Origin: an uncultured Clostridia bacterium
GTDB taxonomy: Bacteria; Bacillota; Clostridia; Christensenellales; CAMQZB01
Assembly: GCA_947039455.1 (NCBI GenBank)
Contig: CAMQZB010000002.1
Location: 22,736 to 86,735, forward strand
Direction of reading: 5' to 3'
Length of the DNA stretch: 64,000 nt
Below, one piece after another: positions 2,224 through 60,060 of this stretch (the stretch's first letter is position 1; each line of letters starts with the position of its first letter). The notes beneath the pieces are model-generated. The model did no database searches and was not told where the DNA came from. It saw nothing but the letters and a program-made list of their open reading frames with translations. The position numbers and the translations under genes were made by a program.

Positions 2224-2787
2224 ATGGTAGTAGCAGGCGATTTCAGAAAAGGTTCAACATTCGAAATGGATGGCGCAGTTTTCACTGTAGTTGAGTTTCA
2301 ACACGTTAAACCAGGAAAAGGTGCAGCATTTGTTAGAACAAAAATCAGAGACGTAATTAATGGTGGATTGTTGGAGAAAACTTTCAACCCATCAGAAAAA
2401 TATCCAAAAGCATCAATAGAAACTAGAAAATACGAGTATTTATACAATGACGGTGATTTCTATACATTTATGGAAACTGAAACTTATGAGCAAGTTGAGC
2501 TTAACGGTGTAATGGTTGGCGATGCATTGAAGTATATCAAAGAAAACGATTTCGTAACTTTGAAATTCTTTAACGGAGCTCCGTATTCATGTGAGCCAGA
2601 AAATTTCGTAACTATGAAAGTTATCGAAGCTGATCCAGGAGTAGCAGGCAACACAGCATCAAATGTTATGAAAAATGCAACTATTGAATCAGGCACAATT
2701 ATTCAAGTTCCAATGTTCGTAAACGAAGGTGACGTTATCAGAATTGATACAAGAACTGGCGATTACATGGAAAGAGTAAAAGCTTAA
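2224..2787 (+). CDS. efp: translation elongation factor P
   Basis: 187 aa. The N-terminus ...[38 protein letters not shown] is the canonical EF-P KOW/OB signature. RBS is GGAGG. Confidence 0.95.
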
Positions 2788-2810
2788 TTCATTAATTTAT
2801 TGAAATTTAA

Positions 2811-2843
2811 AGAGATATGTAATTTATTACATGTCTCTTTTTT
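2811..2843 (+). terminator. rho-independent terminator after efp
   Basis: AGAGATATGTAA / TTACATGTCTCT stem (one G-T pair) followed by a T-run at 2838-2843. Confidence 0.8.
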
Positions 2844-2906
2844 GATTGTTAATTTTTCATTTTCGTGCTATGATAGTAAATGTTAAAGAAAACTAAGGAG
2901 AAAACC

Positions 2907-3578
2907 GTGAATATAAACAGAATTTTAGTAGTAGACGATGATGAAAATATAGGAAATTTAATTGAAGAAATATTAGTGAGAGAAGGGTATTTAGTGACGC
3001 GAGCCTATTCGGGAAGTGAAGCATTGCTAATGGTTGAGAAAGAAAAACCTAACTTAATAATATTGGATTTAATGTTGCCAGGAGTAACGGGTGAGAGGGT
3101 AATGGAGAAAATCGTTAATATCCCTGTTATAGTTTTAAGTGCAAAAATCTCAGTTGAAGATAAAGTGAATTTATTGTCTTTAGGGGCAAATGATTACATG
3201 ACAAAACCTTTTGAAATCAAAGAACTTCTTGCAAGAGTAGCAGTGCAATTACGAATAAAACCAACAAAAATGGAACAAAACAACCTATATTTTCAAGATA
3301 TTTCTATTGATTGTGAAGGTAAAATAGTGAAGGTTAAAGAATCGGAAATTCATCTTACGAAAACTGAATTTTCTATACTTGAAATACTTATGAGAAACAG
3401 TAAAATCGTAGTTACAAAATCAAAATTACTTGATTTATTAAGTCTTGAAAATATAGAAATATACGATAATTCTTTAAAAGTTCATATCAGTCACTTGAGA
3501 ACTAAATTAAAAGAAAAGTCAAATCATGATTATATTGAAGCTGTTTGGGGCGTAGGATTTAAATTAAACAATAAATAA
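2907..3578 (+). CDS. OmpR-family two-component response regulator
   Basis: Receiver domain (ILVVDDDENI...LDLMLPG...SAK) plus a winged-helix C-terminus (LTKTEFSILE...HISHLRTKL...VWGVGFKL). GTG at 2907 lies 6 nt after AAGGAG, so I prefer it over the track ATG at 2880. Confidence 0.85.
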   Translation: MNINRILVVDDDENIGNLIEEILVREGYLVTRAYSGSEALLMVEKEKPNLIILDLMLPGVTGERVMEKIVNIPVIVLSAKISVEDKVNLLSLGANDYMTKPFEIKELLARVAVQLRIKPTKMEQNNLYFQDISIDCEGKIVKVKESEIHLTKTEFSILEILMRNSKIVVTKSKLLDLLSLENIEIYDNSLKVHISHLRTKLKEKSNHDYIEAVWGVGFKLNNK

Positions 3579-6380: not shown

Positions 6381-6391
6381 ATATATGTAAA

Positions 6392-6447
6392 CCCAAAACC
6401 CAAAACCCAAAACCCAAAACCCAAAACCCAAAACCCAAAACCCAAAA
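6392..6447. repeat. perfect heptanucleotide microsatellite (CCCAAAA)x8, i.e. (TTTTGGG)x8 on the - strand
   Basis: Counted directly: 56 bp made of eight uninterrupted CCCAAAA units. Confidence 0.98.
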
Positions 6448-6752: not shown

Positions 6753-7586
6753 ATGATTAAAAGTTTATTGGAAAACTCAATAGGGATAGAGATTGACACA
6801 AAAAATCTCACGGAAGTAAGAGTGCGAAAAGGTCTACCTATCGTTCTATCTTACGGTGTTATTATGAAAACTCTCAATTCTCATAATAAAGAAATTTTAG
6901 GAACAAGCGAAATAATCTCATCAATAATTGCTACTGTTACGGAAAATTCTTTCTACGCATTTGAGGATAAATTTGCAAGAGGATTTGTAGATTATCAAGG
7001 AGCAAAAATAGCAATTTGCGGTGAAGGAGTATATAAAAATAAACAGCTAATCTCATTTAAAAACATCACATCGCTAGCAATAAGAATACCAAGAGCAGTA
7101 TTAGGAATTGCTGATAAAATAGTAAAAGCAACAGAGAACGGTGAGTTATCTTGCCTAATAATAGGAAAAACTGCCACAGGAAAAACTACAATATTGCGTG
7201 ATTTTGCACACTCTATTAAAGGCAAAAACATAGTAGTAATTGACGAACGTGGGGAGATATATTTAGGTCAAAAAAGTTTGGGTGAATATGCTGATATATT
7301 GGAGAGCGTAGATAAAGAAACTGGGATTATGCTTGCAATTCGTGGTCTTAATCCAGACATAATTATATGCGATGAGCTATATACATATAATGAGATGAAA
7401 GAAATGTACCGTTGTAAACTAGCAGGGATCAGCGTGATTTCTACTTATCATGGTGACAACATTCAGTCAATATTAAACAGCAAAATTTTTGTTGAAGGGG
7501 TGTTTGATAGGTTTGTTGTGCTAGAAAAAACTAGAGGACGAGGTGATGTTTTTGCAATCTATGATAATAAGGGGGAGCGAATATGA
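6753..7586 (+). CDS. spoIIIAA: stage III sporulation protein AA (AAA-type ATPase)
   Basis: Walker A GKTATGKTT and Walker B IIICDE. It is the first of eight co-oriented genes with the sizes and order of spoIIIAA-AH. There is no obvious SD sequence before the ATG. Confidence 0.85.
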   Translation: MIKSLLENSIGIEIDTKNLTEVRVRKGLPIVLSYGVIMKTLNSHNKEILGTSEIISSIIATVTENSFYAFEDKFARGFVDYQGAKIAICGEGVYKNKQLISFKNITSLAIRIPRAVLGIADKIVKATENGELSCLIIGKTATGKTTILRDFAHSIKGKNIVVIDERGEIYLGQKSLGEYADILESVDKETGIMLAIRGLNPDIIICDELYTYNEMKEMYRCKLAGISVISTYHGDNIQSILNSKIFVEGVFDRFVVLEKTRGRGDVFAIYDNKGERI

Positions 7587-8026
7587 GATATACCCTTGCA
7601 ATATTAATTGTGTTAGTCACAACATATATGTCAAAAATATTTAGTCAAAAGTACGTTTTAAGAGCAAAGTTTTTCTTTAATTTACAAGGTTTTCTTACTG
7701 AATTAAAGCGAAATATACGTGTAATCAAAGACCCAATATCAAAACTAGCCTTGGCGGAAGATTCGATACCATACAGAATATTTCAATCACCAAATAGCAT
7801 ATATGAGATAGAATATTTAAAAGAAAACGAGAAGGAAGTACTGTTTCAATTTTTTTCTAATTTAGGACGATATGATAGTTATATGGAAGAGGGACGCATA
7901 ACGGACATGGAGGAATATTGCAGTAAGCTTCTTGAAGTAGCAGAGAGAGAAAAAACGCAAAAAATACCGCTTTATGTAAAGTTAGGTTTAGCAATGGGGG
8001 TTAGCGTAGTGCTAATATTGATGTGA
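7583..8026 (+). CDS. spoIIIAB: stage III sporulation protein AB
   Basis: 147 aa with N- and C-terminal TM segments. Position, size and ATGA overlap with spoIIIAA all fit. Confidence 0.75.
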   Translation: MRYTLAILIVLVTTYMSKIFSQKYVLRAKFFFNLQGFLTELKRNIRVIKDPISKLALAEDSIPYRIFQSPNSIYEIEYLKENEKEVLFQFFSNLGRYDSYMEEGRITDMEEYCSKLLEVAEREKTQKIPLYVKLGLAMGVSVVLILM

Positions 8027-8027
8027 T

Positions 8028-8222
8028 ATGGAAATTGATATAATATTTAAAATTGCAGCAATAGGAATTATTGTGGCAGTGCTAGTGAGTGTGTTAAAGC
8101 GAGCGGACAGGGACGATATAGGCAATCTAGTGTCGCTAGCAGGAGTAGTAATCGTGTTGCTAATGGTAGTAGATTTGATAGTCCAATTATTTGAAACCAT
8201 AAAAGCACTATTGATGTTATGA
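8028..8222 (+). CDS. spoIIIAC: stage III sporulation protein AC
   Basis: 64-aa two-TM protein (IFKIAAIGIIVAVLVSVLK...). Position matches the operon order. Confidence 0.8.
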   Translation: MEIDIIFKIAAIGIIVAVLVSVLKRADRDDIGNLVSLAGVVIVLLMVVDLIVQLFETIKALLML

Positions 8223-8602
8223 CGCTGTTTCAATTCATAGCGCTAGCCACGGCGATGTCGTTGCTGGTGCTAGTGATGAAATCCTTTTCTAAGGAATACG
8301 CAGTGTATACGTTGATTGCGGTGAGCATAGTTTTGCTTTTGGCAATAGTAGATTTAACCTTTGGAGTGGTTGAGGAAATCAAGTCAGTATTTGCAATGAC
8401 GGAAATTCCTACTGGACTTTTCACTTCATGTATCAAGGTAATCGGCTTAGCGTATTTAACAGAGTTTTCAGCAAGTATAACAACAGATGCAGGAGAAAAA
8501 TCCATCGGTGATAAGGTGCGATTATTTGGGAAAATGTCGATATTTCTCATGACTCTTCCAATGTTAAAAGAATTTATAAAGATGATAACGGTGCTATTAT
8601 GA
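8219..8602 (+). CDS. spoIIIAD: stage III sporulation protein AD
   Basis: 127-aa polytopic membrane protein. Translationally coupled (ATGA). Position matches the operon order. Confidence 0.8.
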   Translation: MTLFQFIALATAMSLLVLVMKSFSKEYAVYTLIAVSIVLLLAIVDLTFGVVEEIKSVFAMTEIPTGLFTSCIKVIGLAYLTEFSASITTDAGEKSIGDKVRLFGKMSIFLMTLPMLKEFIKMITVLL

Positions 8603-9852
8603 AAAAATTATATAAGAACAAAGCAATGGCAATTATGCTACCAAGAAAACCTGAACCTGTGGTTGCAGTATCAAGAAAAACCGCTATAACTAAACTAGTT
8701 CTCGGCATAGTGTTATGTTTCACAGTTGTGATTCTGATGATCATGTGTTGTGCACCAAAGTTAGTTGTATATAGTGATGAAGGCAGAGCAAATGATAGTT
8801 TTACCGACCAGTTAGACAATATAGATTTAACACCATTTGAAGACTTTTTAGGTGAAGAAACCACATTTGGAGATGAGAGTTTCAAGGACAAGGTATCGGA
8901 TCTTTTGCAGGGAAAGCCAGTAGACGGAGAAAGCATTTTCACAAGCGTAATTCAAATAGTTTTCAAAAGTTTAACTGATTTGATACCACTTTTTTCAGTA
9001 TTAATAGGAATGACCTTGCTCTTTGGAGTACTAACGCATATGAAGAATGGTTTTTTGTCGGAAGAGATACAAGGGATACTAAATATGTGTCTGATGTTGT
9101 CTATAATGCTAGTTGTAATGGGAAGTGTAATCAACTTAATTGTGGAAGCAAAAACAGTTATGATAAGCCTAAAAAATCAAATGTTTACGGCATTTCCAAT
9201 ACTCTTAACATTAATGTTCGCAAGTGGTGGCAAAACATCTGTGGTAGCATTTCAACCGATACTATACTTTTTGTCGGTAATAATATCTGATGTAATAGTT
9301 AAAGCAGTTTTCCCAATATTCATATTTTCCCTTGTTATAAGTTTAATGTCAGCGGTGTCGCCACAAATGAAAATGAAGAAAATGAGTGACTTTCTAAAAA
9401 GCTCATCAATCTACATAATCGGAATAACATTAACAGTATTCACAGCAACACTAGCAATTTCAGGAGTGGCATCAGGAACATATGACAGCGTACTTTACAG
9501 AACAGCAAAATACGCAGTAGGACACAGCGTACCAGTAATTGGAGGGTATATAAGAGACGGGCTTGACGTTGTGATAATGTCAAGTGTAATGATAAAAAAC
9601 AGCGTAGGAATTGTTGCCATGATTCTATTTATGATGACGGTGCTGTCCCCAATAATAACAGTTTTCGGTTTCTCGCTAATGCTAAAATTAGTAGCAGGAA
9701 TTTCCGATGGTTTTTGCGACCCTGAAGTATCCAACTTTTTCGTAAGTGTTAGCAGTCATATCTCGTTAATAGGAGTGTCGCTCCTTGCGGTCACATTTAT
9801 GTATTTAATATCGGTATTAGCACTAATCGCCACCGCTAATATGGGGGTATAG
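8599..9852 (+). CDS. spoIIIAE: stage III sporulation protein AE
   Basis: 417-aa polytopic membrane protein. It is the largest member of the operon and sits at the expected position. Confidence 0.85.
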   Translation: MKKLYKNKAMAIMLPRKPEPVVAVSRKTAITKLVLGIVLCFTVVILMIMCCAPKLVVYSDEGRANDSFTDQLDNIDLTPFEDFLGEETTFGDESFKDKVSDLLQGKPVDGESIFTSVIQIVFKSLTDLIPLFSVLIGMTLLFGVLTHMKNGFLSEEIQGILNMCLMLSIMLVVMGSVINLIVEAKTVMISLKNQMFTAFPILLTLMFASGGKTSVVAFQPILYFLSVIISDVIVKAVFPIFIFSLVISLMSAVSPQMKMKKMSDFLKSSSIYIIGITLTVFTATLAISGVASGTYDSVLYRTAKYAVGHSVPVIGGYIRDGLDVVIMSSVMIKNSVGIVAMILFMMTVLSPIITVFGFSLMLKLVAGISDGFCDPEVSNFFVSVSSHISLIGVSLLAVTFMYLISVLALIATANMGV

Positions 9853-9856
9853 AGTA

Positions 9857-10291
9857 ATGATGAATGGCATAATAATGAGCCTACTTGGTGGGTTCGTAGC
9901 AAGTCTTTTGTTAGAAATGATAATCCCAAACGGAGATCTAAAAAAATATTCTCGGTTTGTGATTTCAATAGTAGTAGCCATGATAATCCTATCGCCAATC
10001 ATAGGTGCAATAGGTGGTTTATCAGGAAAAGAGTTTACATTTGACGGATTTAACCTAGACGAAAACTATATAGAATCACGTGATAATGAAAAAATATCTG
10101 TAATTGAAGGTGGCGTTGAGGAATATTTAGAAATAAATGGCATAGATTGTGATGTAGAAGTATTTTATGAGAACGAAATAATACAAAGAGTAACGGTAAA
10201 AGGCGTAGCCAATAACAAAAGTAAAAGAGCGAAAGAGTTGGTATCTGAATTACTTGAAATCAATAAAGAGAGGGTAAATGTTTATGAATAA
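9857..10291 (+). CDS. spoIIIAF: stage III sporulation protein AF
   Basis: 144 aa with two N-terminal TM segments and a soluble C-terminus. Position matches the operon order. Confidence 0.75.
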   Translation: MMNGIIMSLLGGFVASLLLEMIIPNGDLKKYSRFVISIVVAMIILSPIIGAIGGLSGKEFTFDGFNLDENYIESRDNEKISVIEGGVEEYLEINGIDCDVEVFYENEIIQRVTVKGVANNKSKRAKELVSELLEINKERVNVYE

Positions 10292-10706
10292 AACACAAGA
10301 TACTGGTTCTACAAGTGTAGTATCTCGCATAAAATACAGTAAGAATATGGAGATTTGCCTTGGAGTAATAATCCTTGCAGTTCTTTTGATTGTGTACTTT
10401 GTCAGCGGAAGTGGCATTACAGTAGGAGCAAGTTCCAAGATGACCGATGAAGAAATTCGGTTAGCGGAAACTTTGAGTAATATCAAAGGAGTGGGAAGTG
10501 TTACGGTAATGATTACTAACAAAGAAATAGTAACCAATGTGGGAGGAACTTTTGGAGATGAGGACATTATAACAAAGGAGATTGAAGGTGTCGTAGTGGT
10601 TGCGGAAGGAGCAAGTGACGTAGCAATCAAGATGGATTTAATCAACGCAGTGTGTTTTGCACTTAATATTAAAACATATCAAGTCGAAGTATTTGAGATG
10701 AAATAA
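10278..10706 (+). CDS. spoIIIAG: stage III sporulation protein AG
   Basis: One N-terminal TM segment. The C-terminal block GVVVVAEGA...A is typical of SpoIIIAG ring-forming proteins. Confidence 0.8.
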   Translation: MFMNKTQDTGSTSVVSRIKYSKNMEICLGVIILAVLLIVYFVSGSGITVGASSKMTDEEIRLAETLSNIKGVGSVTVMITNKEIVTNVGGTFGDEDIITKEIEGVVVVAEGASDVAIKMDLINAVCFALNIKTYQVEVFEMK

Positions 10707-10729
10707 ATGACAAATTTGGAGGTAAATAT

Positions 10730-11203
10730 ATGTCAAAAAACAAAAAAATCATATTTTCAGTTGCAATGGTGATGTTATTAGTAGCAACAGCCTATTTGAA
10801 TGTAGTTCTAACAAGAGCAAGTGGTGACGATCAAACGCCAGCACCGGTGGGAAACTTCTTCTCAGAGTTCAGATCAGAACGTTCTAGCACAAGAGACCAA
10901 GAGATTTTGTATTTAGATAGTATAATCGGCAATCAAGGATTGACTGAAGAAACTATTGAGAACGCAGTTGATCAAAAATTAGCTTTGGTTTCATTAATGG
11001 AAAGTGAGCTAGTATTAGAAGGATTAATTAAAGCAAAAGGCTTTCAAGACGTTGCAGTAACAATGTCAAGCGCAAGCGAAAATGTAAATGTCGTGGTGAA
11101 AACTGACGAGTTGTCACAAGAAGATGTAGCACAAATTTACAGTATCCTAGCGGAAGAAGTTAATGCTGAATATGGAAATATTAAGATTATTCCAATTAGC
11201 TAA
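10730..11203 (+). CDS. spoIIIAH: stage III sporulation protein AH
   Basis: One N-terminal TM segment. The FFSEFRSERSSTRDQE block is typical of SpoIIIAH. It is the last gene before a terminator. Confidence 0.8.
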   Translation: MSKNKKIIFSVAMVMLLVATAYLNVVLTRASGDDQTPAPVGNFFSEFRSERSSTRDQEILYLDSIIGNQGLTEETIENAVDQKLALVSLMESELVLEGLIKAKGFQDVAVTMSSASENVNVVVKTDELSQEDVAQIYSILAEEVNAEYGNIKIIPIS

Positions 11204-11741: not shown

Positions 11742-12281
11742 ATGAGAAAAGATGCGAGAGAAGTTTCCTTTAAACTAATTTTTGAATATTTATTTAAGAA
11801 TGAAAAAAACATGGAATTACAAATTGAATTAGGAAAATCACCTGAATTTAAAATCAACGAAGACGATTTGCTAATGATCGACTCAACTTATGAAGGTGTT
11901 ACTTCAAAGATTGAGGAACTAAGAAATTCAATCAAAAAATACGCAGTAGGTTTCACTATCGAGCGTATGTACAAAGCGGACGTAGCATTGCTAGTTCTTG
12001 CCATGTACGAAATAAAATACTGCGACGATATTCCTTATGCAGTTTCAGTGAATGAAGTTCTTGACCTATCAAAGAAATATAGTTCAGAAAAAAGCACTTC
12101 TTTCATTAACGGAATTCTTGCTAACTACATCAAAAACGGTGCAGATGCGGATTGCGAAACTGAAGCGGAAGTAGCAGTAGTTGAAGAAACTGTTGTAGAA
12201 GAAGTAGCTGTTGAAACAGTTGTAGAAGAAGCTGTAGCGGTAGAAACTGAAAAAGAAATAGAAGCGGTGGAAGAAGTATAA
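11742..12281 (+). CDS. nusB: transcription antitermination factor NusB with an acidic C-terminal extension
   Basis: The NusB core (REVSFKLIFEY...FINGILAN) is followed by a V/E/A-rich tail of about 45 aa. Confidence 0.9.
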   Translation: MRKDAREVSFKLIFEYLFKNEKNMELQIELGKSPEFKINEDDLLMIDSTYEGVTSKIEELRNSIKKYAVGFTIERMYKADVALLVLAMYEIKYCDDIPYAVSVNEVLDLSKKYSSEKSTSFINGILANYIKNGADADCETEAEVAVVEETVVEEVAVETVVEEAVAVETEKEIEAVEEV

Positions 12282-13124
12282 ATGAAAATAGATGGAAAGC
12301 TTTTAAGCGAAAAAATCAGAGCTGAAATAAAAGAAGAAGTAAATTTGATTACAGATAAAGAAGGACGAGCGCCTTCTTTATCTGTAATTTTAGTTGGAAG
12401 CGACCCTGCATCGAAAATTTACGTTGGAAGTAAAGGAAAAGCGTGTGAAAGTGTGGGAATGAAATCCAACACTTTTGAGTTGCCTGAAAATTCAACTAAT
12501 AAAGATGTAATTGAGCTTATTGAAGGGCTAAACGAAAGCGGAAAGGTTGACGGAATTCTTGTTCAAGTTCCACTTCCAAAACATCTTGACCAAGAAAGAA
12601 TTCTAAAAACCATTTCACCTAATAAAGATGTGGACGGATTTTTAGAATCTAGTGTTGGAAAACTGTACCTAAATCAAGACGGCTTTTTACCATGTACCGC
12701 ATGGGGAATTGTTGAGCTTATTAAAAGTACAGGAACTGAAATATCAGGAAAACACGCAGTAATTATTGGTCGCAGTAATATTGTTGGAAAGCCACTTTCT
12801 TTACTTTTATTAAGAGAAAACGCAACAGTAACAGTGTGCCACAGCAAAACTACTAACATTGCAAACCACACAAAAACTGCTGATATAGTAATCGTAGCAA
12901 TCGGACAAAAAGAATTTTTGACTGGTGATATGGTGAAAGATGGCGCGGTGGTAATCGATGTTGGAATGAACCGAGTTGATGGAAAATTGTATGGTGACGT
13001 GAACTTTGAAGAAGTGTCAAAAAAAGCAAGTTTTATCACCCCAGTTCCAGGGGGCGTTGGTCCAATGACAATTACAATGCTACTAAAAAACACTTTGAAA
13101 GCAAGACTTGCAAATAAGGATTAA
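12282..13124 (+). CDS. folD: bifunctional methylenetetrahydrofolate dehydrogenase/cyclohydrolase
   Basis: Motifs ILVGSDPASKIYV, DGILVQVPLP, GRSNIVGKP and PVPGGVGPMT. Confidence 0.95.
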   Translation: MKIDGKLLSEKIRAEIKEEVNLITDKEGRAPSLSVILVGSDPASKIYVGSKGKACESVGMKSNTFELPENSTNKDVIELIEGLNESGKVDGILVQVPLPKHLDQERILKTISPNKDVDGFLESSVGKLYLNQDGFLPCTAWGIVELIKSTGTEISGKHAVIIGRSNIVGKPLSLLLLRENATVTVCHSKTTNIANHTKTADIVIVAIGQKEFLTGDMVKDGAVVIDVGMNRVDGKLYGDVNFEEVSKKASFITPVPGGVGPMTITMLLKNTLKARLANKD

Positions 13125-13126
13125 TT

Positions 13127-14323
13127 ATGGAAGATAGAGTTTATTCGATAGTTGAACTGAATCAAATTATTAAAAGAATATTTGATTTTGAGGAACATTT
13201 ACACGGAATAATGCTAAGTGGCGAGGTGACTAACTTTAAAATTTCAGGAAGTCACGCCTACTTTAATTTAAAAGACAACGAAGCACAAATTTTTTGTACA
13301 TTCTTTAATATAACAAGAACCGACACTCCAACAGTGAAAAACGGTGATAAAGTTATAGTTCGAGGTACTCCAGATTTTTACGTAAAAGGTGGTTCACTGT
13401 CTTTGAAAGTAACAAAAATTTCCCCAGCGGGACTTGGTGCGTTGTATTTAAAATTCATTGAATTAAAAGAAAAATTAGAAAAAGAAGGAATTTTTGACGA
13501 TAGCCATAAAATAGCAATCCCAACTCATTCAAAACGAATTGGAGTGCTAACAAGTAAAACAGGTGCGGTAATTCGTGATATAATTAATGTAGCCACAAGA
13601 CGAAATCCATTTGTTGATATCGTGCTTTTCCCAGTGAAAGTGCAAGGTGAAAATGCTGATGTGGATATAGCGAGAGGGATTGAAAAACTTGATAGTGCAA
13701 AGATTTGCGATGTGATAATCGTTGGTCGTGGCGGTGGATCTATGGAAGATTTGCAACCATTTAACACTGAAATAGTTGCCCGTGCAGTTTATAATTGCAA
13801 CACACCAATTATATCAGCAGTAGGTCACGAAACTGATTTCTCACTATGTGATTTCGCAGCGGATTTACGAGCTCCAACTCCTTCCGCAGCAGCTGAATTA
13901 GCTTGCCCTGATATAATGTCAGATGCAGGAATTTTTCTTTCAAAAGCTAATTTAATGGCGAAATACGCTGTTAGAAATATTGAAGAAAAAGAACGTAAAT
14001 TGTCACATAACATTGACAAATTGCAATTATTAGGTGAAAATAATCTAATAAAAGGCAGACAGAAAATAGACAATCTAAACCAAAGAATGATTGGACGCAT
14101 TAAGGAAATATATACTGAAAAACGCAATACTTTAAAAATGCAAATTAATACTTTAGAGAATGTAAGCCCACTTAAAATGCTATCAAAAGGCTATGCGAAA
14201 GTATTAGTTGACAGCAAAGTAGTGACGAAAATTGAAGATGTAAAAGTAGATGATGTATTAACAACTCATTTGCTAAATGGCGTAGTTAAATCAAAAGTAG
14301 TAACTACGGAAATAAAGAATTAG
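13127..14323 (+). CDS. xseA: exodeoxyribonuclease VII large subunit
   Basis: N-terminal OB fold (SGEVTNFK..SGHAYFNLKD), RIGVLTS..GAVIRD, GRGGGS.EDL, and GHETD. Confidence 0.95.
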   Translation: MEDRVYSIVELNQIIKRIFDFEEHLHGIMLSGEVTNFKISGSHAYFNLKDNEAQIFCTFFNITRTDTPTVKNGDKVIVRGTPDFYVKGGSLSLKVTKISPAGLGALYLKFIELKEKLEKEGIFDDSHKIAIPTHSKRIGVLTSKTGAVIRDIINVATRRNPFVDIVLFPVKVQGENADVDIARGIEKLDSAKICDVIIVGRGGGSMEDLQPFNTEIVARAVYNCNTPIISAVGHETDFSLCDFAADLRAPTPSAAAELACPDIMSDAGIFLSKANLMAKYAVRNIEEKERKLSHNIDKLQLLGENNLIKGRQKIDNLNQRMIGRIKEIYTEKRNTLKMQINTLENVSPLKMLSKGYAKVLVDSKVVTKIEDVKVDDVLTTHLLNGVVKSKVVTTEIKN

Positions 14324-14334
14324 GAGATACAAAT

Positions 14335-14550
14335 ATGAATTTCGAAGAAGGAACAAAGAAATTAGAATCAATAATCACAAAACTAGATGCAAGCGATGTA
14401 ACACTAGATAACAGCATTAAATTGTTTGAACAAGGTGTAGCAATAACACGTGATTGCCTTGAAATCTTGGATACATCAAAAGGCAAAATCACTGAAATTA
14501 AAATGGCATTTGACAAATTAGTTGAAAGCCCAATGGATAGCAATAAATAG
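14335..14550 (+). CDS. xseB: exodeoxyribonuclease VII small subunit
   Basis: 71 aa. FEEGTKKLESIITKLD...LDNSIKLFEQG is typical of XseB. It is adjacent to xseA. Confidence 0.9.
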   Translation: MNFEEGTKKLESIITKLDASDVTLDNSIKLFEQGVAITRDCLEILDTSKGKITEIKMAFDKLVESPMDSNK

Positions 14551-14593
14551 ATTTAGCAATTTCTAAATTGTCTAAACAAATAGAAAGGAAACT

Positions 14594-15463
14594 ATGAAAT
14601 ACACAACTGATTACAAAAGAATATTGGAGTTATTTGAAGAAAACCTTCCAAAGCAATTTGGTGATGGTGGCTTTAATACCCTAGAAAAAAGCATGGAATA
14701 TTCCCTTTTTTCAGGTGGAAAAAGACTTCGTCCAGTACTAATGTTAAAAGTGGGAGAGCTTTTTGGCGCGGACTTTAATCGTGTAATGCCATTTGCTGCC
14801 GCCCTTGAAATGATACACACATATTCTCTAATTCATGACGATTTGCCATGTATGGATAATGACGATTTAAGACGTGGAAAGCCAACAAATCACAAGATTT
14901 TCGGTTACGGAAACGCAGTTCTTGCAGGTGACGGATTACTTAATCTAGCCTTTGAAACTGCAATAAATAACATCACCGACAAGGGTACGTTAACCGCAGC
15001 GAAAGTGTTAAGCCGAGCAAGCGGAAGATGTGGAATGATCTCTGGTCAATCCGCAGATTTGTATTTTGAAAATAAGGAAGCAACTAAAGAAGATTTGGAG
15101 TATATCCACAAAAACAAAACAGCTGCAATAATTCGTTCAGCCTTTGAAATGGGCGGACATCTAGGAAATGCAACAACTTTGGAAATTGTAATACTAGTAG
15201 AATTCGCTAATGCTTTTGGAATGATATTTCAACTTACTGATGATTTATTGGATAAATACGGTGACGAAAAAACACTAGGAAAAACTATAGGTAAAGACGA
15301 AAAGTCATCAAAGTCCTCAAGTTTATATGTAATCGGTGAAGAAAAAACAAGAGAATTAATTTCAACTGAACATGAAAAAGCGTTGAATTTATTAGATAAA
15401 TTATCAGTAAATACAGAATTTTTTAAAGAATTATTAAATGATACAGTGTCAAGAAAAATGTAA
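14594..15463 (+). CDS. ispA: farnesyl/geranyl diphosphate synthase (polyprenyl synthetase)
   Basis: First DDxxD region LIHDDLPCMDNDDLRRG and second motif QLTDDLLD. Confidence 0.9.
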   Translation: MKYTTDYKRILELFEENLPKQFGDGGFNTLEKSMEYSLFSGGKRLRPVLMLKVGELFGADFNRVMPFAAALEMIHTYSLIHDDLPCMDNDDLRRGKPTNHKIFGYGNAVLAGDGLLNLAFETAINNITDKGTLTAAKVLSRASGRCGMISGQSADLYFENKEATKEDLEYIHKNKTAAIIRSAFEMGGHLGNATTLEIVILVEFANAFGMIFQLTDDLLDKYGDEKTLGKTIGKDEKSSKSSSLYVIGEEKTRELISTEHEKALNLLDKLSVNTEFFKELLNDTVSRKM

Positions 15464-15497
15464 TTTTCTCACATTTTGGGAATATATTTTTAGATAG

Positions 15498-15526
15498 TTG
15501 ATATTTATATGAATTTATGTTATAAT
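15498..15526 (+). promoter_or_regulatory. near-consensus sigma-A promoter driving the OLE RNA-oapA unit
   Basis: TTGATA (15498-15503), 17-nt spacer, then TGtTATAAT (TATAAT at 15521-15526). Confidence 0.7.
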
Positions 15527-15532
15527 AATGAT

Positions 15533-16175
15533 ATGGTGGTGCAGTATTCTAGTCAGACCAGTTTGCTTTGAAAACGGGGTTAAAATACCGGAAAGGGCAT
15601 ATCGATGAAGTTTCTTGTGCGTGCTTCCGTTGCCCAAACGGGGGGTGCGTACTGGGAGTTAAGGATTATGGGCGTGTCGCAACGGCATGCGACGGGCGAC
15701 CCATTTTCCGTGGAGGCTCAACCTTGTGGGATGCAAATAATTAGATCCTATGAATTGAGATTAAACCTGTCTCGTGGCATTATTAAGCTGCGAACAGTGT
15801 AGCCTGCCTTGAGTGAACATAGCGGATTGAGGAACAACGTATAATTCGGTAGGCCATCGAAGAATTACGATTGCTTTGTGAAACTATGATTTGCAAAAGA
15901 GGCTGGAAGTGAGGTGGTTTGCCAAGGAAAGCTTCTAGACTGTGTGCACAGCATAAATATATTGGGGATTAAAGTGTGGTCTAAAAGGCGATTCAGTTTT
16001 ACATTTGGCGACAGTGTAATGTTTCATTTTAAGGGAAACCGCTCACATCGGTGACGATGAGTATGATACAAGGAAACCTTACTGAACCTAAGCCGCAAAG
16101 TTTACTCAATATATTACCACCTAATTTTGAAACATTTCAAGGACAATTTTTGTTACAATATGAGAATTGTCCTTG
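15533..16175 (+). ncRNA. ole: OLE (ornate, large, extremophilic) RNA
   Basis: About 640 nt with no RBS-preceded ORF, and visibly more G+C-rich than its flanks. It has many local helices (for example GTCGCA/TGCGAC at 15676-15693) and a closing hairpin at 16139-16174. It lies between ispA and a 4-TM protein, followed by tlyA-nadK-argR-recN, which is the neighbourhood described for OLE RNA. I did not align it to a covariance model. Confidence 0.75.
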
Positions 16176-16204
16176 TTTTAATAGTAGTTAAGGAGACGAA
16201 ATTT

Positions 16205-16915
16205 TTGGAAACCAAAAAAGGGGACGACCCGAATTTTAAAAACAGTGACAATGAGGATTTAGAGGACTATAAAATGCCCGATGATTATGCGGAAACGTAT
16301 GAGTTCGTGGAAATACCGTTGCCTAAAAAGGTAATTGAGAAAAAAGTCCGAGTGCAAAAACCTAGATTGACAAAAGAAATGAAAGTGAAACAGCTGAAAA
16401 AACAAGATAAATTTTTCGTAGCAAGAATGTTTATAATGACATTTGCGTTAGCGGTAGTGTTCACGGTAATCACCCAAACGGTGTTATCAGGAGGAAGCCT
16501 AATAATCTCCTTCACCTTGCTTTTCGCACTAGTGGGAATAAGCATTATTTTCGATGTTATCGGAACATCAGCAGCATCTTGTGACATACAGCCCTTTATT
16601 TCAAAGGCAGCAAGAAAAGATAAATCCGCAACAGTAGCAGTGAAATTACTGAAAAATGCTGAGAAAGTATCCAGTTTTTGTAACGACGTAGTAGGAGATA
16701 TTTGCGGTATCGTATCAGGCGGTTGTGCAAGTGCAATCATAATGTCAATTACTGTAGAAGGTACAACGCAGCAAATTATAATTAATATAGTTTTGTCTTC
16801 AATCGTATCAGCAATGACCGTTGGTGGAAAAGCCATAGGAAAATTAACAGCAATAAGATCAAGCGAAAAAATCATAACAATGGTTGCAAACGTCATGGGC
16901 GTATTCAAAAAATAA
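16205..16915 (+). CDS. oapA: OLE-associated membrane protein OapA-like (four TM helices)
   Basis: Basic/acidic N-terminal tail followed by 4 TM segments with embedded acidic motifs (FDVIGT, NDVVGD). It is immediately downstream of the OLE candidate. The in-frame TTG at 16205 lies 9 nt after AGGAG, and the track start at 16127 would fall inside the RNA. Confidence 0.7.
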   Translation: METKKGDDPNFKNSDNEDLEDYKMPDDYAETYEFVEIPLPKKVIEKKVRVQKPRLTKEMKVKQLKKQDKFFVARMFIMTFALAVVFTVITQTVLSGGSLIISFTLLFALVGISIIFDVIGTSAASCDIQPFISKAARKDKSATVAVKLLKNAEKVSSFCNDVVGDICGIVSGGCASAIIMSITVEGTTQQIIINIVLSSIVSAMTVGGKAIGKLTAIRSSEKIITMVANVMGVFKK

Positions 16916-16943
16916 CAATAGATTGTTAAAAATAAAGTCAAAT

Positions 16944-16978
16944 AAGGAGAAACAGCAACCTTGCTTTTTCTCCTTTTA
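16944..16978 (+). terminator. strong rho-independent terminator after oapA
   Basis: 15-nt arms AAGGAGAAACAGCAA / TTGCTTTTTCTCCTT (14 of 15 paired), followed by Ts. Confidence 0.85.
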
Positions 16979-16996
16979 TAATGTATAGGAGATAAT

Positions 16997-17749
16997 ATGA
17001 GATTAGATATGTACCTAGTTGAGAATTGTGATGTTAAATCACGATCACGAGCTAAAATGTTTATAGAAAAAGGACTAGTATTAGTAAATGGGGTTGCAGT
17101 AACTAAAGTAGCTTATGATGTTGCAGAAGGGAAAACCGTGGAAATTGCTAAGGTTCAACAATACGCTTCACGTGGTGCTTATAAACTAGAAAAAGCAGTA
17201 ATTGAGTTTGATTATGATGTTAAAGACAAAGTATTTCTTGACGTTGGTGCATCAAATGGCGGTTTCACTGATTACTTATTATCTAAAGGCGCAAAAAAAG
17301 TTTACGCTATTGATGTTGGAGAGAACCAGTTAGAGCAACATTTGTTGGAAGATAAAAGAGTTGTTGTTATGGATAAAACCAATGCGAAAAATCTAACTAA
17401 AGAGATGTTTGCTGAAGAAGTTTTGCACTGTGTTTCTGATGTTTCGTTTATCTCATTAAAACTAATAATTCCAGTTTTATCTGAAATAGTTGAAAGTATG
17501 TTGCTACTTATTAAACCTCAGTTTGAATGTGGAAGAAGTGCATCAAATAAAAATGGTATAGTTACAAACAAAAAATATCACTTTGAAGCAATTTTAGGAA
17601 TAAAAGAAGTTGCGAAAATGGTTGGAATGCCTATGAGTAAACTAACTGTCGGAAGCAGTGAAACAGGGAAGAATATTGAATTTATGTGTCAGCTTGGAAA
17701 AGATACTGAAATTCTAAACAAAGACCTTGAAAATGTTGTAAACAAATAA
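16997..17749 (+). CDS. tlyA: TlyA family rRNA (cytidine-2'-O)-methyltransferase
   Basis: N-terminal S4 domain (RLDMYLVE...SRSRAK.FIEKGLVLVNG) plus an FtsJ-like SAM motif (LDVGASNGGFTD). Confidence 0.9.
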   Translation: MRLDMYLVENCDVKSRSRAKMFIEKGLVLVNGVAVTKVAYDVAEGKTVEIAKVQQYASRGAYKLEKAVIEFDYDVKDKVFLDVGASNGGFTDYLLSKGAKKVYAIDVGENQLEQHLLEDKRVVVMDKTNAKNLTKEMFAEEVLHCVSDVSFISLKLIIPVLSEIVESMLLLIKPQFECGRSASNKNGIVTNKKYHFEAILGIKEVAKMVGMPMSKLTVGSSETGKNIEFMCQLGKDTEILNKDLENVVNK

Positions 17750-17870
17750 TAATTTCATGAATAAAAAATTATAAATATTACTTTTCCTACAAATACCCCT
17801 TGAATTCTTGCATAAAATAGTGTATAATACGTATAGTAAACAAATTATCACTTTATTATGAGGAGCGTCT

Positions 17871-18701
17871 ATGAAAATTGGGATACATTACAACATAGAT
17901 AAAGACAGTGATTTTTCAAAAACAAGTGCTGTTATTGAGAAGTTGCAAAAAGAAGATTTTGAAGTTTATTTAACGGAGAAAACTGACGGGTATTTATGTG
18001 TGGGGGAAGATATTGAGATTGCTAATCTTGATTGCCTAATCGTCCTTGGTGGCGATGGAACAATTCTTTCTGCTAGCAAATTAGTTTTTGAATATGACGT
18101 TGCGATTCTTGGAATTAATCTTGGAAATATTGGATTTTTGACTAGTTATGAGTATGATGAAGTTGATAGTGCCATTGAAGCTTTGCTAGGTTGGAACTTC
18201 CGAGTGGAAGAACGTCATGTTATCGAAACTTCTGTTGCAAGTGAAACTTACTACGCCTTAAACGAAGTGGCGGTAGCAAGAGGAAGCGGTAATTCACCCT
18301 TTGGTCACATTGCGTCATATTCCGTTTATGCAAACAATAATATAATGGACAATATAGTGGCTGACGGCATAATCGTGTCTACAGCAACAGGCTCAACAGC
18401 TTATTCATTGTCAGCGGGCGGTCCAGTTGTTGAACCATCAGTTGATGTTATGATTGTTACTCCAATTTGTGCACATTCTTTACAAAGTCGACCAATTTGT
18501 GTTAGTGGAAACACGAAAATAGTACTTGAAGTTACGAAAACTACTTTCCCATGTAACATAATTATTGACGGAAATGTTGTTGGAAAACTAAGAGTAGATG
18601 AAGCATTATTAATTGAAAAATCAAAAAAGAAAGTTAAATTATTAAAGCCTAAAGGCGAAAATTTTTACAATAGATTACATACAAAACTAACGAAAAGATA
18701 A
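17871..18701 (+). CDS. nadK: NAD(+) kinase
   Basis: VLGGDGTILSA and NLGNIGFL motifs, plus STATGSTAYSLSAGGP. Confidence 0.92.
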   Translation: MKIGIHYNIDKDSDFSKTSAVIEKLQKEDFEVYLTEKTDGYLCVGEDIEIANLDCLIVLGGDGTILSASKLVFEYDVAILGINLGNIGFLTSYEYDEVDSAIEALLGWNFRVEERHVIETSVASETYYALNEVAVARGSGNSPFGHIASYSVYANNNIMDNIVADGIIVSTATGSTAYSLSAGGPVVEPSVDVMIVTPICAHSLQSRPICVSGNTKIVLEVTKTTFPCNIIIDGNVVGKLRVDEALLIEKSKKKVKLLKPKGENFYNRLHTKLTKR

Positions 18702-18717: not shown

Positions 18718-19170
18718 ATGGCAAGAACTACAAGGCAATCTAAAATTTTAGACCTTATAAAAAACTATGAAATTGATACTCAAGAAGAACTGGTTTCTAA
18801 ACTTAGAAACGAAGATTTTAATGTAACGCAAGCAACAATTTCTCGTGATATCAAAGAGCTTGGTCTAACAAAAATCTTGACGGAAAGCGGAAAATATAAG
18901 TATATTCATGTGGAAGGTGGAAATAACAAAATTTCTACTAAAATCATAAATGTCTTTAAAGAATCTGTTATTTCTATTGAATCAGCCAACAACTTAATGG
19001 TTATTAAAACTTTAGTTGGAAGTGCAAATGCCGCATCAATACTTATTGACAAGCTGGCAATGAATGAAATCCTTGGAACAATTGCAGGTGATGATACATT
19101 GCTAATTATAGCTAGAGAAACTGAGAATGTTAAAGCTATAAAAGATAGAATTGCAGAGATAACTGGATAA
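18718..19170 (+). CDS. argR: arginine repressor
   Basis: RQSKILDLIKNYEIDTQEELV..L...GFNVTQATISRDIKEL and the C-terminal GTIAGDDT motif. Confidence 0.93.
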   Translation: MARTTRQSKILDLIKNYEIDTQEELVSKLRNEDFNVTQATISRDIKELGLTKILTESGKYKYIHVEGGNNKISTKIINVFKESVISIESANNLMVIKTLVGSANAASILIDKLAMNEILGTIAGDDTLLIIARETENVKAIKDRIAEITG

Positions 19171-19183
19171 AACAATTTAAATT

Positions 19184-20872
19184 ATGTTGCAAAGTTTATT
19201 TATCAACAATATAGCGCTAATCGAAAAACTTAACATAGATTTTCATTCAGAGCTTAATATATTTTCAGGCGAAACTGGTGCGGGTAAATCAATAATCATT
19301 GACTCCCTTAATTTTATGCTAGGTGCGAAAACTGACAAAACCCTTATTAGAAACGGCGAAAATCAAGCTGTTGTTCAAGGGGTTTTTGACATTTCTAAAA
19401 GAGCGGATATCAAAATTCTCATGGAAGAAATTGGACTTGAGGAAGAAGATCTTTTGATAGTTTCAAGATTGATGTCAGTGAAAGGCAAAAACGAAATCCG
19501 CATAAATGGAAAGGTTGTTACCTTGTCAATGTTGCGAGAGATTTCTCACAAATTAGTTGATGTACACGGTCAAAGCGAGCATTTTATGCTGTCAAAAGTT
19601 ACTGCACATCTTGAACTTGTAGACAATTTCGCAAAATCAACTGTAACCAAAATAAAAGAAGACTTTGCAAATGCTTATACGAAATTAAACAATTTGCAAA
19701 AAGAACTTGGAGCATTTGGCGGATCTGAAGCTGAAATGCAAAGATTAATTGACTTATATAGTTTTCAAGTAAAGGAAATTGACGAAGCTAATTTAGAAAT
19801 TGGCGAAGAAGAATCGTTGCTTGAAAAATACAAAATAATCATGAATATTGAGAAGATTTCCTCTAATTTATCTGGGGCAATATCATCGCTTTCAGGTGAA
19901 GCAGGGGCGTTGACAACAGTGGGTTCAGCCTTTACTCAGTTAAATGCTATTGCGTCAATGAACGATAAAATCACTGGATTAGTTGAAAGATTGAAAGTTA
20001 TTAAGTTTGAATGTGCTGATATTGACGAATCTTTGAAAGATGTTCAAGTTGATCTAGCATTTGATGAACGGGAATCAGATAAAATTACTGACAGAATAGA
20101 ACAAATTAAGAAACTAAAAAGAAAATATGGTGCTGATGTGAATGCTGTTTTAGTATTTAGAGATAAGGCAAAAGCAGAGTATGATAAATTAACTTCAAGT
20201 GAAGAACTCATAGCTGAATTGAAAATCAATATAGAGAGACAAGAAAATATTACTCTTAACATAGCTGAAAAACTTAGTGAAGAAAGAAAAGTAAAATCAG
20301 CTGAATTAGAGAAATATATTATAACTGAACTTAAAGAATTGGGAATGGAAAATTCACGATTTGAAGTTATGTTTAAAGATAATGAAAGAAAAACAATGAC
20401 TAAGACTACTGGACTAGACGATGTGGAATTTATGTTCTCAGCCAATTTAGGAGAGCCAATGAAACCGCTAATTAAAGTTATTTCGGGTGGAGAAATGTCA
20501 CGATTCATGCTTGCGTTAAAGAGTATTACAAGCGAACTTGACGATATTGATACCATGATTTTTGACGAAATAGATTCAGGAATTTCAGGAAAGATTGCCC
20601 ATGTAGTGGCGGAGAAGTTCATAAAAATCAGTCGCCATCAACAAATTATTGTTATAACACATCTACCGCAAATTGCATCAACTGGTGATTGTAATTTATT
20701 TATTACAAAAGCAGTAGAAAATGGCGCAACAAAAACATCAATCTCACCATTATCACAACAAGAAAAAATAGTGGAAGTAGCTAGACTATCAGGCGGAAAC
20801 GAACTAACAAACGCAACTCTAGCCCACGCAGAAGAACTAATTTCTCACTATGACAAAATTAAAGAAAACTAA
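19184..20872 (+). CDS. recN: DNA repair protein RecN
   Basis: N-terminal Walker A GETGAGKSI, long coiled coil, and C-terminal SGGEMSR...FDEIDSGISG. Confidence 0.95.
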   Translation: MLQSLFINNIALIEKLNIDFHSELNIFSGETGAGKSIIIDSLNFMLGAKTDKTLIRNGENQAVVQGVFDISKRADIKILMEEIGLEEEDLLIVSRLMSVKGKNEIRINGKVVTLSMLREISHKLVDVHGQSEHFMLSKVTAHLELVDNFAKSTVTKIKEDFANAYTKLNNLQKELGAFGGSEAEMQRLIDLYSFQVKEIDEANLEIGEEESLLEKYKIIMNIEKISSNLSGAISSLSGEAGALTTVGSAFTQLNAIASMNDKITGLVERLKVIKFECADIDESLKDVQVDLAFDERESDKITDRIEQIKKLKRKYGADVNAVLVFRDKAKAEYDKLTSSEELIAELKINIERQENITLNIAEKLSEERKVKSAELEKYIITELKELGMENSRFEVMFKDNERKTMTKTTGLDDVEFMFSANLGEPMKPLIKVISGGEMSRFMLALKSITSELDDIDTMIFDEIDSGISGKIAHVVAEKFIKISRHQQIIVITHLPQIASTGDCNLFITKAVENGATKTSISPLSQQEKIVEVARLSGGNELTNATLAHAEELISHYDKIKEN

Positions 20873-58630: not shown

Positions 58631-59083
58631 ATGAAAATAATTGCAACCAACAGAAGTGCCACATTTGAATATTTTATCGAAGAAAGCTTCGAAGCTGGCA
58701 TATCTCTAGTTGGACCGGAAGTTAAATCTATCCGCGCAGGTAATGTCAGTCTCAAAGAGTGCTTTATTTTCATAAGAAACGGACAAATGGTGCTGAAAAA
58801 TATGCACATTGCGCCATACGAACAAGGAAGTTTTTCCAATGTTGACGTAAGGCGTGACCGTACTTTGCTAATGCACAAGTTCGAAATACACAAATTAATG
58901 GGTAAAGTCCAAGAAAAAGGACTTACATTAATTCCAACAAAAATATACTTGAAAGGTTCTCTAATTAAAATGGAAATTGCCTTGTGTAAAGGAAAACAAA
59001 CCTTCGACAAACGCAAAACTATTAAAGACAGAGAAGAAAAACGAAACCTACAAAGAGTATTCAAAGAATACAACTCAAGATAA
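58631..59083 (+). CDS. smpB: SsrA-binding protein
   Basis: IATNRSATFEYFIEE.FEAGI.L.G.EVKS.R, with a C-terminal basic tail. Adjacent to rnr and ssrA. Confidence 0.96.
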   Translation: MKIIATNRSATFEYFIEESFEAGISLVGPEVKSIRAGNVSLKECFIFIRNGQMVLKNMHIAPYEQGSFSNVDVRRDRTLLMHKFEIHKLMGKVQEKGLTLIPTKIYLKGSLIKMEIALCKGKQTFDKRKTIKDREEKRNLQRVFKEYNSR

Positions 59084-59105
59084 AGTCTTATTTAAGGATA
59101 AAATT

Positions 59106-59561
59106 ATGGAATTTAAAAAAATAACAAAATCAAATTATATGGAATGTATTAACCTAAAAGTCAGTGCAGGCCAAATAGATTTTGTTGCTGATAATTCTCA
59201 ATCTCTAGTGGAATCAGCTTTCGAAGAAGGTTTAAAAACCTTAGGAATTTACAATGAAGACACTATGATCGGTTTTATCTTATATGATTATGACAGCTCA
59301 TTCCCCGGTTGGTCACTAAGTCGATTTATGATTGATTATAGATGCCAAGGAAAGGGATATGGAAAAAAATCTGCTGAAGAATTTCTTGATTATTTTAAAA
59401 AGGAAGTGCCAGCGGATAAAATATATATTAGTGTTTGTGTTGATAATCAACCGGCATTGAAAATGTTTGAAAATCTCGGATTTCAAAAAATTAAAGAAAT
59501 TGAATATATTTTTAATACCAAAAAATTCAGAGAAATGCAAATGTATAAATCATTTAAATAA
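59106..59561 (+). CDS. GNAT family N-acetyltransferase
   Basis: Acetyl-CoA-binding block Q/RxxGxG/A (CQGKGYGKKSAEEFL). ATG at 59106 follows AAGGA. The track start at 58977 would overlap smpB by 107 nt. Confidence 0.8.
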   Translation: MEFKKITKSNYMECINLKVSAGQIDFVADNSQSLVESAFEEGLKTLGIYNEDTMIGFILYDYDSSFPGWSLSRFMIDYRCQGKGYGKKSAEEFLDYFKKEVPADKIYISVCVDNQPALKMFENLGFQKIKEIEYIFNTKKFREMQMYKSFK

Positions 59562-59709: not shown

Positions 59710-60060
59710 GGGGGTGTACCGGATTCGATTGGGAAGATAAGGTGCTTTGTATAAGCGTGTCGAAGGCTCGGCTTCGTTAAAACGGAAACAATTTTAATTG
59801 CTAACAGAAATACTGTAGCTTTAGCTGCCTAGTCAGCTTTTGTCGTTTGGAGTAACCTACGGACTCAACTCGGCATCAATTTAGTAGGGTACATGTGAGA
59901 GCAGGAGTGATCTAGCCTACCTCACAGGACACAAAGCGGATTCGTCAGTATAGGATTATGTCGTTGTAAGCCGTACTTGATGTAAAAATTAGCGACTACA
60001 CACGTAGAAGACTTTGTGTCGCTTTCCAACACAGGGGTTCAACTCCCCTCACCTCCACCA
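59710..60060 (+). ncRNA. ssrA: transfer-messenger RNA (tmRNA)
   Basis: The 5' end GGGGGTGTACCGGATTCGA pairs with the 3' end GGGGTTCAACTCCCCTCACCTCCACCA (tRNA-Ala-like acceptor/T arm, encoded CCA). The tag reading frame GCT AAC AGA AAT ACT GTA GCT TTA GCT GCC TAG (59800-59832) encodes ANRNTVALAA. Confidence 0.97.

Follow-up and report, generated by a model that had tools for sequence, protein, structure and literature searches.

A full-length OLE RNA gene followed by oapA in a compact, dxs-less neighbourhood of an uncultured spore-forming lineage

Downstream of ispA, in a 64-kb stretch of DNA from an uncultured Clostridia bacterium (contig CAMQZB010000002.1, positions 22,736 to 86,735; hereafter the window, numbered from its first letter), a long spacer precedes a gene for a small membrane protein. 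OLE, the ornate, large, extremophilic RNA, is known from 2,822 genomes, and reduced forms of it, variant 1 (TANB77) and variant 2 (RF39), have been described by Fernando and Breaker. A preliminary description of the window had proposed that the spacer encodes OLE and that the protein is its membrane partner OapA. The locus thus raises the question of whether both assignments hold, which type of OLE is present, and how the two genes might be expressed. We found that the interval is almost certainly an ole-oapA module, composed of a full-length OLE RNA gene and then the membrane partner gene oapA. The locus adds one more ordinary member to a family that is already well described, of which thousands are known and which routine Rfam annotation detects. 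Its central elements are as follows.

15520 to 16136, + strand: OLE RNA of the full-length type (Rfam RF01071)
16190 to 16195, + strand: ribosome-binding site (RBS) of oapA, AAGGAG, nine nucleotides (nt) upstream of the TTG at 16205 and 54 nt past the Rfam match
16205 to 16915, + strand: oapA, 236 amino acids (aa), TTG start

A search with the OLE covariance model had been set beforehand as the test of this proposal, and the match reached 452.2 bits (E = 1.7e-129; gathering score 50) and ran through all 616 positions of the model, untruncated and with posterior probabilities near 1. Only two matches in the Rfam scan of the whole window exceeded the gathering score, namely OLE and a tmRNA (59710-60060), and no other RNA family matched in the OLE interval. 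The spacer extends for 741 nt from the end of ispA (15463) to the next credible coding sequence (16205), which is longer than the ~640 nt first reported, while the accompanying claim that it holds no RBS-preceded open reading frame (ORF) stood. Its only ORFs, of 58 aa (15568-15744) and 65 aa (15605-15802), are on the + strand and both lie inside the OLE match. The spacer had also been described as richer in G+C than its flanks, and indeed 15533-16125 has a G+C content of 44.4% against a window mean of 34.0% (standard deviation 3.2%, 593-nt windows), the highest among same-size stretches of the 64 kb. When the window OLE was aligned with 21 relatives (22 OLEs), RNAalifold predicted 152 pairs, 104 of which are maintained by changes in both partners, with a covariation term of -28.9 kcal/mol; the long-range 5'/3' stems are part of the prediction. 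A conserved multi-stem OLE secondary structure is therefore supported by covariation, and the mature RNA, closed by P1, probably spans ~15533-16125.

To place the functional sites, we took the OLE motifs from the Rfam consensus alignment and compared them with published site definitions.

15535 to 15540 and 16116 to 16121, + strand: P1, GGUGGU pairing with ACCACC, by sequence complementarity
15575 to 15591, + strand: P4 hairpin with the A-rich loop UUAAAAUA at 15580-15587, from the Rfam consensus alignment
15601 to 15610, + strand: 5' strand of k-turn 1a, AUCGAUGAAG, identical to the Rfam consensus
15632 to 15636, + strand: P5.1 loop GCCCA, complementary together with its preceding U to the P6.1 loop
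15654 to 15664, + strand: partner strand of k-turn 1a, GGGAGUUAAGG, identical to the Rfam consensus
15684 to 15687, + strand: P6.1 loop GGCA, giving four Watson-Crick pairs as UGCC/GGCA
15852 to 15855, + strand: palindrome GGCC of the P9 terminal loop, aligned to the consensus GGCC
15999 to 16019, + strand: P13 hairpin, primary OapB site, 8 bp, all pairs canonical
16051 to 16054, + strand: GUGA (GNRA) tetraloop of P14.1, from the Rfam alignment

The published OapB site consists of a GNRA loop and a 1-nt bulge, with P14.1 acting as a weak secondary site (PMC7936274). P13 of the window has a lone bulged U (16004) and, three pairs above it, a GCGA (GNRA) tetraloop (16008-16011), and its OapB docking site is intact. 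The OapC site is the k-turn formed by J4a/5, J5/6 and the left shoulder of P6, in which a C-G pair adjoins a 3-nt bulge (PMC9723947). Here all 22 aligned OLEs share AUCGAUGAA of the k-turn 5' strand without change and 20 of them keep the final G of that strand, and the OapC k-turn docking site, which flanks P5, likewise appears conserved. The palindromes CUAG and AUCGAU have both been proposed in the literature as OapA sites; both are found in the window OLE, where the k-turn 5' strand contains the AUCGAU of the P4a site. P3 and P3.1 comprise ~14 predicted pairs (RNAalifold), sufficient for the proposed membrane-spanning helix, and P1 shows the compensatory pair GACGGU/ACCGUC in the aligned RNAs of loci L056 and L062. 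In cryo-electron microscopy (cryo-EM) models (PMC12265935), the A-rich loop of P4 is dimerisation centre 1, P5.1 and P6.1 form intermolecular kissing loops between two OLE RNAs, and the GGCC of P9 is a self-kissing dimer contact. All four dimer contact motifs of the Clostridium acetobutylicum and C. botulinum OLE RNAs, which are cryo-EM dimers, are present in the window RNA, and its sequence predicts that it would make the same contacts.

These features also settle the type. The window RNA retains P7, P8, a long P9 and the OapB site and is for this reason assigned to the full-length type rather than to variant 1 or variant 2, both of which belong to the same RNA class and also come from uncultured gut-type Bacillota. 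As a separate observation, the 3' strand of P6 (window 15663-15710) reads CCCAUUUUCC, which is not a CCUCC-like anti-Shine-Dalgarno mimic. Such a mimic has been reported in the P6 3' strand of Halalkalibacterium (Bacillus) halodurans as the binding site of bS21, whereas it is not obvious in the window, and this low-G+C lineage may lack it.

The gene directly 3' of ole on the same strand was expected to encode OapA, a protein with four transmembrane (TM) segments, and both parts of this expectation were borne out. The strongest evidence for its identity is the position of OLE upstream of its homologues, which number 4,269. We examined 80 homologue loci drawn from species-representative genomes, and in 75 of these nhmmer located OLE immediately upstream in the same orientation; of the five exceptions, four are truncated by contig ends. 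The top species-representative genome shares 51% OapA identity with the window. In an alignment of 24 sequences, both Asp residues of D161-V-V-G-D165 are invariant. This DxxxD motif corresponds to D100/D104 of H. halodurans OapA and distinguishes OapA from CNNM domains; the H. halodurans D100A/D104A mutant (PM1) has phenotypes more severe than those of an ole-oapA deletion. Hydropathy gave hydrophobic segments at ~70-94, 98-122, 158-184 and 190-212, and AlphaFold predicted matching helices at 57-96, 99-125, 152-183 and 188-218, with a core pLDDT of 80-91 and residues 1-55 predicted to be disordered. The top five Foldseek matches in the Protein Data Bank (PDB) were all CNNM/CorB/CorC TM domains (7m1t, 7m1u, 7cff, 7cfg), with probabilities of 0.94-1.0 and E values of 8e-3 to 0.7, and 7M1U is also the reported top fold match of H. 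halodurans OapA. Residues 45-82 have a net charge of +9, with all 12 K/R within 46-74, and the loop between TM2 and TM3 (132-157) has a net charge of +5; these charges would form the positive cluster on the cytoplasmic face that is characteristic of OapA.

With regard to the start codon, the oapA starts of the window and its four closest relatives align with each other, three being TTG and two ATG, and the homologue P0002 begins M-E-T, which agrees with the TTG at 16205. The deposited call for the window protein (P0001, 251 aa) begins instead at an ATG within the hairpin that follows OLE (window 16160-16204). Since the location of the RBS and the alignment with the starts of the relatives both favour the TTG at 16205, this call is probably 15 codons too long.

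Several results do not favour the ole-oapA assignment. The window OapA matched nothing in Pfam or NCBIfam at E<=0.001 and produced only two chance-level Pfam hits at E<=1, neither of them to the CNNM domain PF01595; among PDB sequences nothing was better than E 0.73; the TM-scores of the CNNM fold matches are modest (0.37-0.44 by query length); and neither oapB (KOW/YbzG) nor oapC (L7Ae/YbxF) was found among the non-overlapping ORFs of at least 45 aa in the 64-kb window. The absence of these two genes from the window had been stated in the preliminary description, and in H. halodurans, likewise, neither of them is linked to ole. Since direct sequence identification failed, the identity of OapA rests upon its homologues, motif, fold and synteny. 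That the protein is instead a small Mg2+/Co2+ transporter of the CNNM type, related to MpfA or CorB, which adjoins OLE by chance and is not a dedicated partner, is very unlikely. CorB/CorC transporters are indeed its best structural matches, and many of its homologues carry a weak PF01595 hit; the source record of one homologue names it 'Mg2+ and Co2+ transporter CorB'. However, MpfA, CorB and CorC share only the TM-domain fold with it: they have three TM helices rather than four, no DxxxD, and cytosolic CBS and CorC domains, whereas the window protein has DxxxD and, at 236 aa with no Pfam domain, neither the CBS pair nor CorC_HlyC. Its homologues, moreover, are found directly 3' of OLE in 75 of 80 genomes. 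An evolutionary link between OapA and the CNNM transporters has been suggested in the literature, a transport role for OapA within the ribonucleoprotein (RNP) has been discussed there and may exist, and the presence of MpfA/CorB/CorC transporters anticorrelates with OLE. Even less credible, to the point of being negligible, is the idea that the spacer is a decayed OLE remnant or codes for small proteins. The two short + strand ORFs would be the source of such proteins, but they lack an RBS and are located in paired regions, and the OLEs of relatives show compensatory helix substitutions together with indels whose lengths are not multiples of three. A remnant would further have to reconcile decay with a full-length covariance match of near-1 posterior probability and with functional motifs that are all intact. 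Thus, on each point where the ole-oapA assignment could have failed, the outcome was favourable, as there is a significant covariance-model match, no rival RNA family and no conserved coding frame.

We then placed the module among its neighbours, with genes assigned by Pfam and NCBIfam profiles.

6753 to 11203: spoIIIAA-AH, then Asp23
11742 to 12281: nusB
12282 to 13124: folD
13127 to 14323: xseA
14335 to 14550: xseB
14594 to 15463, + strand: ispA, farnesyl diphosphate (FPP) synthase (Pfam polyprenyl_synt, 181 bits; NCBIfam FPPsyn NF045485, 295.4, cutoff 275)
16944 to 16975, + strand: hairpin after oapA, a possible terminator (-17.2 kcal/mol in a 75-nt context, z = -3.0)
16997 to 17749, + strand: tlyA, rRNA 2'-O-methyltransferase (TIGR00478, 205.5 bits, cutoff 185.8)
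17871 to 18701: nadK
18718 to 19170: argR
19184 to 20872: recN

The order nusB-folD-xseA-xseB-ispA-OLE-oapA-tlyA-nadK-argR-recN confirms the canonical neighbourhood that had been recognised previously. Beyond recN, a YpsA-family gene runs in the opposite direction, and spoIIE and tilS follow. The hairpin after oapA is present, as proposed, but its description as a strong terminator was overstated, because its U-tail is short (UUAU), a consensus terminator scan is silent there, and it is missing in the more distant relatives L084 and L086, where tlyA abuts oapA.

The feature in which this neighbourhood departs from the usual one is the lack of dxs, which had also been pointed out. In the window, tlyA occupies the usual place of dxs, with a gap of 81 nt between oapA and tlyA. 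For the window as a whole, non-overlapping ORFs of at least 45 aa were surveyed against Pfam, and a few very short, noise-like ones were judged by translation. No dxs was found in the 64 kb, where tblastn with a confirmed Dxs in all frames gave a best E of 0.31. A 627-aa ORF at 45215 was considered as a relocated dxs and rejected, as it is UvrC, and none of the other large window ORFs that we checked is Dxs. We compared this layout with the 68 other loci that have enough downstream sequence. A ~1.9-kb gene lies between oapA and tlyA or nadK in 62 of them, and all of these genes match the confirmed Dxs at E<1e-20 (the reference Dxs was confirmed by Pfam in one locus, at 359.5 bits). Five loci are compact like the window (L009, L010, L013, L056 and L062), and the remaining one, L040, has a different ORF, of 217 aa, at the dxs place. 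Because the four closest metagenomic relatives of the window share its compact order, the dxs-less layout is a lineage trait; it recurs elsewhere and is a minority arrangement rather than a singular event. Linkage to dxs is consequently dispensable, being absent from five of the 68 other loci and from the whole lineage.

Some of the homologue loci differ in other ways. In L010 (10001-11565), dxs and tlyA are both missing and oapA abuts nadK, while L071 (655-3891) keeps dxs and lacks tlyA. In L026 (6242-6818), OLE is ~3 kb upstream of oapA and not adjacent to it. L023 (10001-10507), from an uncultured Bacilli metagenome-assembled genome (MAG), has an OapA homologue with no OLE detected by nhmmer in the 10 kb upstream; its OLE may be a reduced variant that nhmmer missed. 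Finally, the 11.5 kb Oscillospiraceae contig L074 contains two inverted OLE-oapA copies (2480-3121 on the - strand and 8422-9063 on the + strand) with identical nhmmer scores; this inverted duplication may be real or may have arisen in assembly.

The lineage referred to here consists of the window and its four closest metagenomic OapA relatives, whose OapA identities to the window are 87% (L082), 61% (L085), 56% (L084) and 46-47% (L086). All four relatives have the order ispA-OLE-oapA-tlyA-nadK-argR-recN. The window locus also recurs on a 4.3 kb scaffold from another sample. A second trait of the lineage concerns the N-terminus of OapA. TM1 of the window protein begins near residue 70, compared with a family median of ~29 residues before TM1, and its DxxxD is 61 residues further from the N-terminus than the H. 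halodurans counterpart. Residues ~45-69 of this extension are Lys-rich, whereas residues 1-44 are acidic (net charge -7), disordered, and contain DYKMPDDY. The corresponding motif, DYxxxDDY, was found in every one of the five loci of the lineage but was absent from all 80 species-representative loci. We considered whether a dxs-less layout is always coupled with a long OapA N-terminus and rejected this, as all five compact loci outside the lineage lack the motif. As for the host, OLE is carried by Bacillota, typically anaerobes or extremophiles. The window contains the spoIIIA operon and spoIIE and has a G+C content of 34%, and the nearest relatives are Clostridia and Bacillota MAGs; this places the host, a gut-type organism, among uncultured spore-forming Clostridia or Bacillota, and it is presumably an anaerobe.

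How the RNA and the protein might be produced was considered next, starting from two predicted signals that flank OLE.

15498 to 15526, + strand: sigma-70-type promoter, with -35 TTGATA at 15498-15503, a 17-nt spacer and extended -10 TGtTATAAT at 15518-15526
16138 to 16179, + strand: terminator-like hairpin, with a 16-bp stem at 16138-16175 and then UUUU at 16176-16179

Both features had been picked out in the preliminary description, and both are present in the sequence. The near-consensus promoter matches at 11 of 12 positions, has the upstream TG, and is the top sigma-70 site in 14300-18000. Across the five lineage loci its -35 and extended -10 are conserved, always at the same spacing from the invariant GTGGTGCAG, and transcription would start at ~15533-15535. 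The hairpin, which lies just before the oapA RBS, folds at -18.5 kcal/mol (z = -4.8; none of 200 shuffles folds as well) and is the sole terminator-like site given by a scan of 14300-18000. In four of the five lineage loci, a hairpin with a T-tract lies 15-17 nt past the 3' strand of P1 even though the stem sequences differ, and these hairpins fold at -12.8 to -17.8 kcal/mol. In the fifth locus (L085), the hairpin is kept via a compensatory change and the T-run is poorer. From these features we would propose that OLE is made from its own sigma-70 promoter with a start at ~15533, and that the hairpin and U-tract at 16138-16179 terminate or stabilise a large share of the transcripts. The product would be an abundant RNA of about 600-650 nt. 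Since the oapA RBS is only 11 nt past the U-tract, there is no room for a separate promoter, and oapA would be expressed from read-through transcripts only. This dependence upon read-through, together with the weak TTG start, would keep OapA well below OLE in amount.

This model of expression has several points to contend with. The promoter, the RNA ends and the leaky terminator are as yet unproven predictions from sequence, and in the literature that we searched neither a promoter nor a terminator specific to OLE is described. We found no terminator after ispA, and therefore read-through from upstream may contribute to transcription; in H. halodurans, the whole cluster has been described as one polycistronic transcript. 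In addition, the post-OLE stem is AU-rich (4 G-C of 16 pairs) and is followed by four U's only. When all hairpin lengths were scanned across the family, a comparable post-OLE hairpin was present in only 15 of 79 loci (1-5 in shuffles), and we accordingly rejected a post-OLE terminator as a general family feature. It is thus conceivable, although we regard it as the weaker account, that the hairpin at 16138-16175 is not a terminator but a protective or processing structure of the RNA 3' end, or a means of translational control of oapA, with OLE and oapA made in equal amounts from one processed transcript, a scheme that has been put forward for the polycistronic cluster of H. halodurans. The composition of the stem, its short U-tract and the single H. 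halodurans transcript would all fit this account, as would L085, which retains the hairpin through a compensatory change while missing a good T-tract. On the other hand, a T-run directly after the hairpin at the same distance from P1, with differing stems, is the signature of an intrinsic terminator, and this is what the other four lineage loci exhibit. Direct occlusion of the RBS is unlikely because the hairpin does not overlap it. A partial terminator downstream of a dedicated OLE promoter is therefore the model that we prefer for this lineage.

Overall, the locus closely resembles the OLE RNP locus of H. halodurans. Both have a full-length OLE with oapA directly downstream and DxxxD in OapA, a GNRA loop and bulge in P13 for OapB and a k-turn for OapC, as well as folD, xseA, xseB and ispA upstream and tlyA, nadK, argR and recN downstream. 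The window differs in having no dxs after oapA, in the ~60 extra N-terminal residues of its OapA with their acidic head and DYxxxDDY, in its dedicated consensus promoter and terminator-like hairpin, where in H. halodurans one polycistronic transcript has been reported, and in its host, an uncultured, low-G+C (34%) spore-former. In H. halodurans, OapA dimers bind OLE and hold the RNA at, and possibly through, the membrane, to which OLE does not localise without OapA (PMC12265935). Work in H. halodurans and two Clostridium species indicates that OapB and OapC aid OLE folding or conformational switching and that the OLE particle serves in coping with alcohol, cold, excess Mg2+ and poor carbon sources. 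By analogy with these studied species, OLE, OapA, OapB and OapC would have the same roles in the window organism.

The peculiarities of the lineage, namely the promoter, the 3' hairpin, the long OapA N-terminus and the lack of dxs, are modest variations and not a new kind of system. More speculatively, and with considerable doubt on our part, ole-oapA may have become a self-contained unit here, with a strong promoter, a leaky terminator and a high ratio of RNA to protein, in which the DYxxxDDY head is a new, lineage-specific docking or regulatory module for the RNP and the loss of dxs belongs to the same rearrangement. Among bacterial non-coding RNAs of unsolved biochemical function, OLE is one of the largest and best conserved, and for this reason each divergent, well-delimited example is useful comparative material. 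The present locus adds little that is new beyond confirming that a low-G+C, spore-forming lineage from which few sequences are available keeps OLE intact, together with its protein docking sites and dimer contacts. Nevertheless, a compact ole-oapA unit with its promoter and 3' hairpin would be convenient for heterologous expression and for studying the OLE:OapA ratio, and the N-terminally extended OapA subfamily can be compared with the forms that have a short N-terminus.

Several other features of the window were recorded. The tmRNA gene at 59710-60060 (Rfam 130.6 bits) has no smpB adjoining it. Upstream of it is an ORF for a GNAT acetyltransferase (58977-59561), preceded by RNase R, and downstream are a KAP-family P-loop NTPase (60568-62337) and then ~1.6 kb without credible ORFs. 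Insertion of an island at ssrA might account for the segment 59710-64000, but no second copy of the tmRNA 3' end, as expected at the edge of such an island, turned up in the window. Between a histidine kinase gene and spoIIIAA, positions 6389-6447 consist of a perfect tandem heptamer (AAACCCA, 8.4 copies, 100% matches). A 27-nt tandem repeat (12168-12247, 2.8 copies) lies within the 3' end of nusB. NusB of the window is 179 aa long with its Pfam domain ending at residue 131, while the protein has 193 aa in L082, 136 in L084 and 134 in L086. Taken together, the repeat and these differences in length point to a variable, repeat-built C-terminal tail of NusB in the closest relatives.

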